A DNA stretch of 64,000 nt from TPA_inf: Saccharomyces (taxonomy: Eukaryota). The position numbers and the translations under genes are program-made. The stretch spans positions 160,001 through 224,000 of the forward strand of contig BK006935.2 in assembly GCA_000146045.2 (NCBI GenBank). The letters run 5' to 3'. Under the pieces are notes generated by a model that ran no database searches, was not told where the DNA came from, and was given only the letters and a program-made list of their open reading frames with translations. Within the stretch, counting starts at the first letter, position 1; each line of letters opens with the position of its first letter. Shown one piece after another: positions 38,478 through 57,612 of this stretch.

Positions 38478-38790
38478 TCTCGGCTTCTTGTTCTTTCAAA
38501 AGGATCTTCAAATCCGCTTCCACTTAAGCAGCCTTCTGCTACGACTTCTTCTGAGACACTCGGTTTCGCGCGGGCACTTCTGCCCACCAAAAAAGTTTAT
38601 TTTCCGGAAAGCTTATTTCTAAATAAACTTCTGAGGAATTTTTTTTCCGCAAATTTCCATGCAACGTCGAACTCTCAAATTCTCACGAGATTATTTGACT
38701 TGCTTTCCTTTCCCCCTTTTTCCACGCACTACGTCAATGCAAGTGATCCGCTTTTGAAGAAGCAAAAAATACTTCTTTCAGCTCGTACCG
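38478..38790 (+). repeat. Copy A of a ~350-bp dispersed repeat shared with 51010-51232 and 57248-57612
   Basis: ttcttgttctttcaaaaggatcttcaaatccgcttccacttaagcagccttctgctacgacttcttctgag… aligns to 57255-57330 (ttcttgttctggaaaggatcttcaaatccgcttccacgtagcagtcctcgctacgacttcttctgaag). The alignment continues through …ctcacgagatt(a/t)tttgac…ctttttcc… to …gatgaagcaaaa…. Confidence 0.6.
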
Positions 38791-39340
38791 GCATTTTTAT
38801 TATTTGTCAAAACTGGCGTTTGGAAACCAGCTCTTCACTTTTTCTTCGTGGTTTCTTCGTGGTTTTTTCGAGAGTTTTGTTTAAGCCCCTTTTATGGATG
38901 CATGAGAAAAAAAAAAAGGTTTGCTACAACCATCTCAGGTCTCTTGAAGGATAGTTCGAAGCTCGCCTGACCGTCTTTGGGTGACCAGGCTTGGTTTTCA
39001 GTTTTTTTTAGCTCATTGAGATATGTGATCCCGTTCCTAGATATTATGAGGGAATTTTATATATCAAATTGATTTTCACCGCGAATTCCAGAAGGATGGG
39101 CAAAAGAGGGCTTGTTGGCGTGGGAGGATGGTCGCGGCTGAAAATTTTCACCACGAGCAGTTTCTTGTGAGACATCCTAATACTTTTGCATTTTTACCAA
39201 GCAGTCGTCCGTAGCAAAGCATAGGTTAGTAATAACAATGTGCAAATAAAAAACTATCTTACAGGCAATTATTTTGTGGCAAAGCAAGGTCCATGTTTTC
39301 TTGAAAGGTAAGAAGTGGCTTTGGGACAGCTCATATAGAC

Positions 39341-39688
39341 AGATTTAAGTTTTTGATCTGAGAAGCGAATGAAATGTCTTCAGTATCATTCAATTTAGCA
39401 TCCTTTTCATTGACTTTGAATGTTTTACCGCCCCAATCAATGCCATAATTAGCACCCCATGGATGGTCGTTTAAGGCCTGAAGAGTTATGGAGCATTGTG
39501 AATAAAATAAAAAATTACTTAGGAAAAGCATCGTGTTGAAGTAAAGCAAAGAGCAGCAAAAAATAAATGGAGTAAATATGAGAGAAATACAGATCAGAAT
39601 GGTTCGTTCAAGAGTCCATACTATAAACCCGATGGTGACTTTTGCACAAAAAAACAATGGTTTCGAAGATTGTGCTCATATTTTCTGA
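39341..39688 (+). pseudogene. Decayed duplicate of the last ~115 codons plus the stop of SWH1 (an OSBP-homolog C-terminus), same orientation, riddled with stops
   Basis: Alignment to 35810-36185: …tcattgactttgaatgttttaccgcccc… against …gcattgactttgaatgctttgccacccc…, and gaaaagcatcgtgttgaagtaaagcaaagagcagcaaaaaa against gaaaagcatcgtgttgaagtaaaacaaagggcagcaaaaaaag. Both end with the same terminus, ttcgaagattgtgctcatattttctga against ttaaagattgtgctgatattttctaa. Translated in the SWH1 frame it reads FLI*EANEMSSVSFNLASFSLTLNVLPPQSMP*LAPHGWSFKA*…KNNGFEDCAHIF*, against SWH1 [43 protein letters not shown]…KNHDFKDCADIF*. Confidence 0.7.
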
Positions 39689-39908
39689 GCTCAACATATG
39701 CTCGCAAAAACACCTACTAATTGATGTTTACCAAGAACGCGAGTACAGTCATATATAGATGTAGTAGAGTTGAGATATTCTGAATCGGAAGTACGATATT
39801 TCAATTCCTATATTGCAAAAATTTATATATTTGGAGCTTCTTGAAAGAAAAAGTGTCCAACATCCTGCATGAAGTTTGATCACTTTAGCTGGTCCCATTC
39901 GAAGAACC

Positions 39909-54200: not shown

Positions 54201-57200
54201 GGTTTATAGCGGGCATTATGCGTAGATCAGGACTTAAATTTTTCATTGCAGAAGTCCAATTTCAGACTCAGTATGGTTTGTTGTAGTGCTGGTGTAAAAG
54301 ATGGTGTTATTACTTAAGACTGATTTGGTTGCTCAGGTATTTCATTCAATAAAATTGTGAAAGAGAACCTGGAATATAGAATGGAAATATATATCCTGCT
54401 ACTAACCCCAATGGAAGGTGACGATCACTTCTTGTGCGTTCCAATCCCAGTTTTTGAATGTGCGAGTGGAAAAATTCTAGAGGAACAAATTGATATTTTC
54501 AAATCAGAATTCATCAAATATATGTACTCTGTAAAAACCAAGGATGTGATGAAGTTGAGATATTGTCTTTATGGGAAATTGACTTCTTTGTTTAATATGA
54601 ATAATGCAATTTTACTCCTCAGCTCAAGTAGTGTAAAGATTCAGTAGCCGTCATCAAATAGACTAAAAATTAAAAAATAAGATTCAATGTGGTATGATAA
54701 TGATAGATGAGAAGAAATTGCAAGAAAACGAATAAATACCTTGTCTCTTTGCACTGAATATCTTAAAGGACATACAGTCGCAATAACGTCTACTCATTGG
54801 TGTGTGTCAAAAACAGTACGTTTATTATCTGGACAGCCAAAAAATAAGATCTATTCAAACATGGAATATAGCGTATTTTTATTTAATCACGGTACAATGG
54901 AGATATTTGCATGCCTATAGAAACAAGTAATAGTTATCATATTATTTTCTAGATTTTGTCACTGAACTTTTCCACTAATGAATCCTATCAAAATTATATA
55001 TCCAATATGGCTGCATTCCCAACTAAATATTAAAATGCCGCTAAGTATAAAATGTCTCCGCATCGGTAAAAAGCATTACAAATGCGTATTATACTAGCGA
55101 GAAAAAAGTATAAGTATCAATGCCAATCACCCTCTGACCATAAACTTTCTAAACATGAATAATAAAGGTGTTGAGAGTTATTATCCTAATTGATCAATTA
55201 ATTTGAAGCAAAGTTATTATGTTAAAGAAAAAGGGATGTCACAATCCTAACTATAATTTTTGCACTATACTCTGTAGGCGTACAAAATGGTTTGTACCGA
55301 CTATATTCTCTTTATTTTTGACAATCCTTTACGATATATGATTAAGAATACCATGTTATTTTTATGAAAATCTGTGATTTTTTTGTTTTCATACACTTTT
55401 TATTTTTGTCACGTAGTGCACTTTGATTAATACAAAAAAAAATGCTGCAAAAGCATCGACTACATAAATTCATTAGGACGCATTCCTCATTACCACCTGG
55501 GTCTAATTTTTATTTTGAAATTGATATTATTCTTTATATGATGAGGTAAAAAGCATTATATTCGTTGTAAACTCATATACTTATCCTCATTTTAGGCACC
55601 ATCAGGGACTAAGGGCTAAAGTATCAGAGCCGCATTTCAACAGTGTACAGAGATTTTAGAAACATTATCACGCACTGCCTTTTGCTTTGTTTACCCGTAA
55701 TGAGTATACAGTGGATTTTCTGGTGCTAAAGCATATTGCCCTTTCGGCAATACTTGATGCCCTAAACATTTTCATCCTGGAACATACGAGTAAGAGCACA
55801 TTTATGTGCCTATATTCCTCGTTTTTTACTGGTGCTGAATTTCTTATTTTCCACAGATAACAATCATGTTAATAAATTATGCACTGTGCTAATTTTTCAA
55901 TTAAGGTTCTATTACCCCTCTATCACCGACAGAAACACGTAATGATGTGTTATTTCCATTATAATTCCGTAAGAATGGTGTTTATAGGTAGTCTAAAGAA
56001 CGTGCATCAGAGAAGAATAACTGTCGCAAAAAATGACTATTCTTTACCTTTTCAAACTTAACTGAGATAGTTATCTCTATTATTACCAGTGGCACACACG
56101 CGAACTACATCACTCACCACTATCGTCTTAGGAACTCAAGATTTTATAGTAATGCAGCCGAAGACATTCAAGTCCTGAGAGAAAATGTAGACATTTTAAG
56201 AAAAGTACCGGAAATAAAGCACATGTAAAGCATTGAGCTCTGTACTCTATAAAAATTAGCTGCATTCAAACAACAATGTTTGAAATTTTTGCAAAAGTTA
56301 TTGAAAAAGATTGCTGTTTTCAGCCTTGTTCAGATCATGTCTCAAAAATGAGAAACTGGAACTCTCATAATCAGTACCTCGTATTTTTTTTTCCTTATAG
56401 TTTCGTTATTAAAAATTTTTTTGCTGCTAATTTAAGTACGCTTTTGGTCATAAATGCTACCCACCAGTTGAATTATTGACATGATTAAAATACATTTCAG
56501 AACTTTACGGATTAAAAACTTTAAAGAACCTTTCAATCCATGTTGCTGGAGGGCCATGAATCCACGAATTACAGCAAAAGAAGACAGTAACTACTTAGGG
56601 TTCAATAATTACTTGCATAAACACACACTAACAACCAAATCGTACTAAAATTTGCAATTAACAAAACTCCATCATATCACGCTGAATTATGTAGGGCTTC
56701 TTAATGCAATAGGTTGCCTGAATTTTGCTTACTCGTGCTGCCGGGAACACTTAGCAGTTGGGAGGCCGTTTCTCCCATATATTTCATAATTTTCTGTCCT
56801 TCTTAGAGTAGGATGCTGAAAATCAAAAGAAGACCGTCAATAGGACCAGATTTTGTGGGTCAATTTTGGGCCAGACACATGATACCCTAGGAAGTTTAAC
56901 GGTATACAACTCAAGGACGAGGAGTATTCGGAAACTACCGGTTTTTAACAAGCTGCAAATTTCCAGTAGCTGTTTTGGTTGCGACTACGGATAAAAATTC
57001 ATACTTTAGGAAGTGAAGCAAGATAAAAAATCATGCTGCATCCTAATTCGTGAAGTTTGTTAGGAATATTATTGTAAACAAGGAACCGTTTCAGTAAACT
57101 TGCTCTCTACTCTTCTAAGCTGTAATTTAAAAAAAGCGATAAAACAATGATTTTGATTATCTGCAACTTCTGGAAACTCGAGATACTACGCTAGACGAGA

Positions 57201-57247
57201 TACCTATTAATTGTTTTCCTAAAAAATCAGGAACAGTTCCTGGCAGC

Positions 57248-57612
57248 TTTCGGCTCCTTCTTGTTCTGGAAAGGATCTTCAAATCCGCTTCCACGTAGCA
57301 GTCCTCGCTACGACTTCTTCTGAAGTATTTTGATTTTTGGCTGCATTTACCTTTTATTGCCGAAAATCTTATTTTCCAAGAAAAAAGCTTATTTTGCATT
57401 AAGTTTAAAAAATTTCTTCTTTCCCGTAGATTGACTTGCAGCGTCAAAATTCCGGAGGCCTCACGAGATTTTTTGACATCGGTTTTTGACATCTCTTTTT
57501 CCTTCCTTTTTCTTTCTTTTCCTGCGCACGCCGATAAAGAAGTAGTACAACAGACAACGTCAAAATGATCCTCTTGTGATGAAGCAAAAGAGGAAGAGTA
57601 TACTCCTTTTCC
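57248..57612 (+). repeat. Copy C (longest) of the ~350-bp dispersed repeat, about 500 bp upstream of the FLO-like pseudogene; the dubious ORF YAR060C lies on the opposite strand
   Basis: See copies A and B. The minus-strand ORFs at 50987-51178 and 57157-57651 share …LQVNLRE(K/R)(E/R)NFL…LM.NK.F… only because of this underlying nucleotide repeat. Confidence 0.6.

Follow-up and report, generated by a model that had tools for sequence, protein, structure and literature searches.

How did a sequence of several hundred base pairs come to lie in repeated, same-orientation copies around a flocculin gene, and what is it? The question arises from a 64,000-nt stretch of Saccharomyces DNA (contig BK006935.2, positions 160,001 to 224,000, forward strand; hereafter the window, to whose first base all coordinates refer) that carries FLO1. 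An original prediction, made from the sequence alone, described three ~350-bp copies in one orientation (A, B, and C) and allowed for two interpretations: leftovers of segmental duplications from which the FLO copies also arose, or a conserved regulatory module upstream of flocculin-type genes. Both hold, and they describe the same thing. The dispersed repeat is very probably the 5′ regulatory region of FLO1-family flocculin genes, spanning about −970 to −250 from the start codon, multiplied together with its genes by same-orientation segmental duplications on the chromosome arm and between subtelomeres.

The Repeat Is Longer than Proposed and Has Four Copies

Under BLAST-like scoring, the best local alignment of A and C contained 62 identities in 71 positions (87%), with a score of 86, whereas locally shuffled sequence scored 25 ± 2 (z = 27). 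B and C matched at 77 of 102 positions (75%; z = 15 against locally shuffled sequence), and A and B shared only a collinear exact 17-mer. With single copies as queries, nhmmer returned E = 3.6e-32 for A–C, 3.1e-20 for B–C, and 7.7e-15 for A–B, in each case plus strand against plus strand. These scores show that the similarity is real and far above chance, not the AT-rich coincidence that the original prediction had itself considered. The originally proposed intervals align three ways and collinearly over ~450 columns, with the quoted shared blocks (ggatcttcaaatccgcttccac, one beginning cccgtagatt, and gatgaagcaaaag) present and in place.

The homology extends beyond those intervals: in nhmmer, A and C match over 38390–39060 and 57162–57884, and the repeat unit is ~600 to 720 bp long. 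All three queries also recovered a further copy, D (nhmmer match 42529–42905, plus strand, E = 1e-06 to 7e-05; single-sequence E = 1.2e-06 to A and 7.3e-05 to C). A module profile built from the copies and searched over both strands of the window found no copy other than A, B, C, and D at E < 1. The window thus holds four copies, all on the plus strand. The predicted copies and their common orientation stand; their length and number do not, the inventory having missed FLO1's own copy D and a FLO relic behind B (51728–52634), both of which nhmmer found.

Lenient global/local alignment over large flanks fell into a linear-score regime and was uninformative; the stricter scoring and nhmmer were used instead. 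A free-end global identity matrix gave no meaningful values where overlaps were short or where the control was shuffled sequence, and we kept from it only the coding-region values and rough module identities of 63 to 72%. Module identities on profile columns are lower (43 to 59%) since poorly aligned columns are counted. The copies and the features around them, with open reading frames abbreviated ORFs and amino acids aa, are as follows.

38440–39043, plus strand: module copy A, an orphan, with Flo8-type half-sites at 38592 and 38608 (profile E = 8.7e-127; A–C E as above)
39314–39748, plus strand: relic of the 3′ end of an SWH1/OSH1-type gene (parent 35800–36246, E = 1e-48; tblastn 39314–39685, 35% over 133 aa)
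42497–43063, plus strand: module copy D, upstream regulatory region of FLO1 (−906 to −340); most diverged of the four (profile E = 5.8e-86)
42652–42679, plus strand: published Flo8p-responsive site AAAACCTTATTCTACGGAAAACCTTATT, −751 to −724 of FLO1 (exact match, single in the window; PMC2780560)
43146–43402, plus strand: FLO1 proximal promoter (proximal-promoter profile match 43146–43432, E = 2.7e-51)
43403–48016, plus strand: intact FLO1-type flocculin ORF, 1537 aa, with 135-nt internal tandem repeats (PA14/Flocculin protein)
50884–51477, plus strand: module copy B, with one Flo8-type half-site at 51022 (profile E = 2.9e-122)
50987–51178, minus strand: spurious 63-aa ORF inside copy B (no Pfam family)
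51509–51742, plus strand: decayed proximal promoter after copy B (profile match 51509–51775, E = 1e-34, the copy itself being in the profile)
51728–52634, plus strand: heavily decayed relic of FLO N-terminal coding sequence (tiled nhmmer)
57157–57651, minus strand: spurious ORF inside copy C, 164 aa, or 111 aa from its ATG (no Pfam family, no codon periodicity; 18 of 22 to 22 of 28 indels not divisible by three)
57211–57867, plus strand: module copy C, with Flo8-type half-sites at 57364 and 57384 (profile E = 1.5e-136)
57878–58133, plus strand: proximal promoter of the FLO pseudogene (profile match 57878–58163, E = 9.9e-49)
58134–59324, plus strand: frameshifted FLO-like pseudogene, its N-terminal domain spread over three frames (43408–44355 against 58139–59084, 77%; tblastn pieces in frames 3, 2, and 1)

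The Module Keeps a Fixed Position Upstream of FLO-Type Starts

Since the ORF at 43403–48016 encodes a PA14/Flocculin protein, D is the region −906 to −340 of FLO1. The pseudogene aligns to FLO1 from the start-codon equivalent (43408 against 58139), which places C at −923 to −267 from its start, and the start of the relic places B at −859 to −266. D, B, and C thus each occupy about −900 to −250 from a FLO-type start: of FLO1, a decayed relic, and a pseudogene, respectively. The relic aligns to FLO1 43388–44265 (E = 4e-15), to the pseudogene (E = 5e-17), and also to the Saccharomyces eubayanus FLO gene; it is ~62% identical to FLO1 in nucleotide sequence, and just 45 of its codons (52433–52561) are visible by tblastn. 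Between module and start lies a further shared element: a 260-bp proximal-promoter profile, built from a set that includes the FLO1, pseudogene, and relic copies, recognizes those three together with FLO5 and the S. eubayanus FLO gene.

Order and spacing are also kept inside the module. The block CTACG begins at −802 (D), −768 (B), and −826 (C); Flo8 half-sites lie at −750/−733 (D), −721 (B), and −770/−750 (C); and the block GATGAAGCAAA lies at −581 (D), −543 (B), and −556 (C). A Flo8p-responsive box of the AAAACCTTATT type is present at about −700 to −770. Half-sites number two in D, both exact, two in A, one in B, and one in FLO5; C has two under the looser pattern AAANYTTATT and one under AAAVYTTATT. 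Of the eight occurrences of the latter pattern in the 64 kb, six lie within the four copies. When the A, B, C, D, and FLO5 modules are compared in 15-nt windows, the eight best-conserved all fall within −804 to −544 of FLO1, a stretch whose conserved blocks include TCACGAGATTATTT and CCCGTAGATT. Reading these blocks as transcription-factor motifs (e.g., CCTGCA for Phd1/Sok2) was rejected: that motif is in B only and is not conserved.

Copy D Is the FLO1 Upstream Regulatory Region

By homology, in single-sequence nhmmer and profile searches alike, all four copies belong to the FLO1-family upstream region, and D is that very region of FLO1. The 28-nt Flo8p-responsive sequence given for −751 to −724 of S288C FLO1 (PMC2780560, after Kobayashi et al. 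1999) is found exactly at 42652–42679. Tup1p and Cyc8p at FLO1 are concentrated between −500 and −1000, the upstream region has a single DNase I hypersensitive site of ~100 bp at about −700, and an amplicon at −585 is enriched for Hda1p, Rpd3p, and, in cyc8 mutants, Snf2p (PMC4316177). A Flo8p signal in chromatin immunoprecipitation (ChIP) has been reported on the FLO1 promoter in a FLO8-restored strain (PMC10446238). The predicted upstream module therefore coincides, in D, with both the published Flo8p site and the Cyc8-Tup1 peak.

A, B, and C are paralogues in which the conserved blocks on either side survive together with one or two half-sites; unlike D, they have no intact gene behind them. 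Judged by sequence, C and B are the same control platform, which in C precedes a frameshifted pseudogene and in B a FLO relic of which little is left. Occupancy by Flo8p and Cyc8-Tup1 is taken from the literature for D, and C, B, and A could still bind these factors.

Flocculation has been attributed to Ty1 insertions at −95 to −156 and −394 to −470 of FLO1 and also to a 6.2-kb deletion starting 229 bp upstream of FLO9 (PMC5499169). The insertions fall between the module and the TATA box of FLO1; in our own reading, insertions and deletion alike fit a repressing element further upstream.

A Flo8-Box Core Recurs at Other FLO Loci

Outside the window, the full module recurs at FLO5, identified by its chromosome VIII context with methyltransferase and aldose epimerase genes upstream. 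It lies there at −859 to −241 (C against locus L001, E = 1.2e-18; L006 and L014 agree). FLO5 thus shares with D, B, and C the same-orientation position ~0.25 to 1 kb upstream of PA14-type flocculin coding sequence. At the FLO9-locus gene (L015, with GDH3 and BDH genes upstream), recognizable similarity is confined to a core of ~50 to 80 bp at about −700. The suggested check of both loci thus succeeded in full at FLO5 and only for the core at FLO9. A FLO paralogue adjoining a CorA-type gene (L003) likewise retains just a ~50- to 80-bp core at about −700. The surviving core at these two loci reads GAAAAC(C/T)TTATT..CATTAAAGTT..TTTTC..TTCC and includes one near-match to the Flo8 box at each. Its retention where the rest of the module is unrecognizable argues for constraint on the core. 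Overall, the ~80-bp Flo8-box core at about −700 is kept in six of the seven FLO-type promoters compared, or in seven sequence copies if orphan A is counted.

S. eubayanus and Saccharomyces pastorianus carry one FLO gene ~3 kb downstream of the SWH1 orthologue, with the 3′ half of the module only (−610 to −303, E = 1e-16). The Saccharomyces uvarum locus (L007) gave no match to the module profile, and the Flo8-box core was seen in neither S. eubayanus nor S. uvarum. At S. uvarum L007:5503–5625, a match to the proximal-promoter profile and to FLO1 5′ coding sequence lies ~400 bp upstream of the called start, and that gene model is probably 5′-truncated.

Three candidates for FLO9 were set aside in this survey: P0036, labelled "Flo9p," proved to be the chromosome VIII FLO5 locus, and P0004 and P0002 proved to be the FLO1 locus of other strains. 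Several database sequences bear signs that FLO copies have recombined in other strains. One protein is named "FLO1/YAR062W fusion protein" (P0001); the FLO9-locus gene (L015:6674–9400) has a FLO1-like 5′ part running into the pseudogene and downstream sequence (window 58860–60863); and at L006 (FLO5, chromosome VIII context) and L003 (CorA-linked) the FLO gene is directly followed by the 99-, 203-, and 161-aa ORFs that follow the pseudogene in the window.

Copy A Is a Promoter Stump next to an SWH1/OSH1 Relic

Copy A is homologous to about −970 to −250 of FLO-type promoters. Behind it, the proximal-promoter profile found no proximal promoter and tblastn no FLO coding sequence. What follows instead is the relic of an SWH1/OSH1 3′ end, whose parent is the upstream oxysterol-binding-protein gene and which begins approximately where a FLO start codon would be expected. 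Copy A is thus a promoter stump that has lost its proximal promoter and gene. The arm accordingly carries a series in one orientation: promoter stump A; promoter D with FLO1; relic promoter B with its relic gene; and promoter C with its pseudogene.

The geometry fits an SWH1–FLO tandem duplication: the distance from the SWH1 stop to the virtual start after A is ~3.1 kb, and the SWH1–FLO spacer of S. eubayanus is ~3.0 kb. Derivation of A and D from a simple tandem duplication of SWH1 3′ end, intergenic sequence, and FLO promoter is nevertheless doubtful: the spacers 36246–38390 and 39748–42497 have no detectable similarity, and A is much closer to C than to D.

Other S. cerevisiae strains (L002 and L005) keep both A and D at the FLO1 locus. 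Window 38560–42750 is collinear with L002:1100–5350 and with L005, the interior between A and D being ~60 to 72% identical and the flanks 95 to 99%. Both transitions lie inside modules: a mosaic one at 38560–38850 and a sharper one at 42600–42750, beside the Flo8 box. The SWH1 relic is far more decayed in those strains than in the window. The interior resembles a haplotype that is either deeply diverged or introgressed. This ~4-kb block, which differs by ~30% in other strains, has module A at one end and module D at the other.

Copy A lies at −4.96 to −4.36 kb from FLO1. A ChIP walk upstream of FLO1 reached 3.5 kb only (PMC4316177), so that A is just beyond it. A chromatin domain of ~5 kb upstream of FLO1 is reported to be remodelled by Cyc8-Tup1 and Swi-Snf, and A is at its edge. 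It is conceivable, if rather improbable, that A is a live second docking site that sets the far domain boundary, or a distal silencer or enhancer of FLO1, and relatedly that crossovers in modules A and D delimit an ancient or introgressed haplotype by which FLO1 regulation is changed.

Copies B and C Lie in a Young Subtelomeric Block

Window 48155–64000, containing B, the relic, C, and the pseudogene, is 99.2 to 99.4% identical on chromosome I-, VIII-, and VI-sized contigs of other strains (L009–L013). The 111-aa ORF product of C is encoded on contigs of all three sizes, and B and C are both present at those loci. The stretch, which begins shortly after FLO1 and runs to the window end, is a young interchromosomal subtelomeric block; we take it to be the ~15-kb redundancy reported along with the sequence of chromosome I. 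Since B and C are duplicated elsewhere at >99% identity, short reads would map to more than one place.

The original prediction had asked whether the copies belong to an already named subtelomeric element. B and C do lie inside a recognized subtelomeric duplication, that of chromosomes I and VIII with FLO-like pseudogenes, at identities of at least 99.2%, but this is not in itself a named repeat element; A and D lie outside it. The module repeat is a much older layer of duplication, 50 to 70% identical, within and around that block.

Alternative Explanations

The minus-strand ORFs invite a quite different account, in which the repeat is the relic of a small coding gene of the YAR060C/YHR212C type duplicated beside FLO genes. 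The 164-aa ORF in C, whose 111-aa ATG version is presumably YAR060C, and the 63-aa ORF in B share a similar peptide stretch (LQVNLRE..NFL), and many assemblies annotate a gene for exactly the 111-aa product. Neither A nor D, however, keeps the frame: their longest minus-strand ORFs measure 41 to 46 aa (A) and 80 aa (D), none of them homologous, and the ORF products match no Pfam family above threshold. Between copies, 17 of 25 to 22 of 28 indels are not multiples of three, and substitutions are flat over codon positions with no third-position excess. The B ORF resembles the C ORF because the underlying DNA is homologous, as had been proposed; frame, codon bias, and domain content all speak against a YAR060C-like protein-coding family. 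The repeat is non-coding, its minus-strand ORFs are by-products rather than genes, and the coding account is the least credible of those considered here. Scarcely more credible is that the copies are fragments of a mobile element, such as a solo long terminal repeat (LTR), or units of a named subtelomeric repeat that came to lie near FLO genes by chance. The region is subtelomere-like and contains LTR-type repeats (49428–49783 matches four other places in the window), and B and C belong to the block common to several chromosome ends at ≥99.2% identity. Like solo Ty LTRs, the copies are dispersed same-sequence elements of a few hundred base pairs in a gene-poor chromosome end. Unlike them, the module has no similarity to the LTR-type family of the window (238–575, 5825–6167, 23140–23474, 29421–29769, and 49428–49783). 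All copies share one orientation, and three of the four, plus FLO5, lie at a fixed distance from a FLO-type start, with A lacking FLO coding sequence; no copy occurs elsewhere in the 64 kb. A search of 36000–60000 gave no Rfam match at the gathering threshold, and the tRNA model found only 6266–6340 and 22521–22604, neither within a copy. The repeat belongs to no LTR, tRNA, or known RNA family, in agreement with what had been proposed for Ty LTRs and tRNAs.

The more serious competitor, which we nonetheless consider unlikely, is neutral descent alone: the copies would be leftovers of duplication that have had too little time to decay, with no shared constrained module beyond the short Flo8 site of FLO1. 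Several observations lean that way and weigh against a functional module. B is attached to a decayed relic and A to no gene, so that their similarity may be pure descent without function; the module identity of B (46 to 55%, profile columns) is about as low as that of the coding relic (~62 to 65%); and in vivo occupancy by Flo8p and Cyc8-Tup1 has been published for D alone (PMC4316177, PMC10446238). The factor that recruits Cyc8-Tup1 to FLO1 is not known, and deleting candidate recruiters one by one did not de-repress FLO1 (PMC4316177). Upstream of the S. eubayanus FLO gene, the search for the Flo8 box found none. Of the four copies, that of FLO1 itself, D, has diverged most, and it gives no single-sequence match to the FLO5 module at E < 0.01. 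Module similarity puts A closest to C with D as the outlier, whereas in coding sequence FLO1 is closest to FLO5; since promoter similarities do not mirror coding ones, the history must include recombination, gene conversion, or uneven rates. Against neutral descent, the Flo8-box core is kept at about −700 at the FLO9-locus gene and at L003, although the promoter around it can no longer be recognized at either; S. eubayanus retains the 3′ half of the module; and the conserved windows coincide with the mapped hypersensitive site (PMC4316177). On balance, a FLO-family control region duplicated with its genes accounts best for the repeat.

Other Features of the Window

The LTR-type repeats lie at 238–575, 5825–6167, 23140–23474 (minus strand), 29421–29769 (minus strand), and 49428–49783 (plus strand). 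The first two probably bound a full-length Ty element (238–6167), since window 258–3728 matches the end of a chromosome VIII-sized contig (L011:1–3465) at 95% identity; the others look like solo LTRs. The tRNA genes are tRNA-Ala (6266–6340) and tRNA-Ser (22521–22604, minus strand). Near the end of the window, ORF 61787–62944 contains a 108-nt tandem duplication (62564–62778, 82% identity) and is followed by a T-rich tract of ~45 nt (63120–63165).

Discussion

In D, the only copy that drives an intact gene, the conserved core acts as a platform for activator and repressor combined. The direct repeat of AAAACCTTATT binds or responds to Flo8p, and the nucleosome-free patch of ~100 bp at about −700 also seats the Cyc8-Tup1 co-repressor with Hda1p and Rpd3p; Swi-Snf comes to the same patch once repression is lifted.

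A related case is FLO11, whose large promoter is controlled by Flo8p and Sfl1p and carries regulatory non-coding RNAs. As at FLO1, an adhesin gene promoter there joins Flo8p activation and co-repressor silencing over a long upstream region; in contrast to FLO11, no non-coding RNA family was detected in the repeat copies. No kinship in sequence between the two promoters was seen, though no search aimed at it was made. The FLO1 promoter has been called significantly less complex than that of FLO11 (PMC2780560).

The feature itself is ordinary and largely known biology: paralogous control regions of a well-studied subtelomeric gene family, with the function of the core already published for FLO1. 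What is added here is modest: D as a fourth copy, the FLO relic, the recognition of A as a promoter stump, and, around the Flo8 box, a footprint common to the paralogues. Their use is mostly in tidying annotation, because they account for the paralogue-like dubious minus-strand ORFs near FLO genes and show that the FLO-type units along the arm, all in one orientation, comprise a single live gene, a pseudogene, a relic close to erasure, and a promoter stump. The direct repeats could plausibly serve in the rearrangements from which FLO gene variation arises, and the paralogue footprint of the ~80-bp core could help to home in on the protein through which Cyc8-Tup1 is brought to FLO1.

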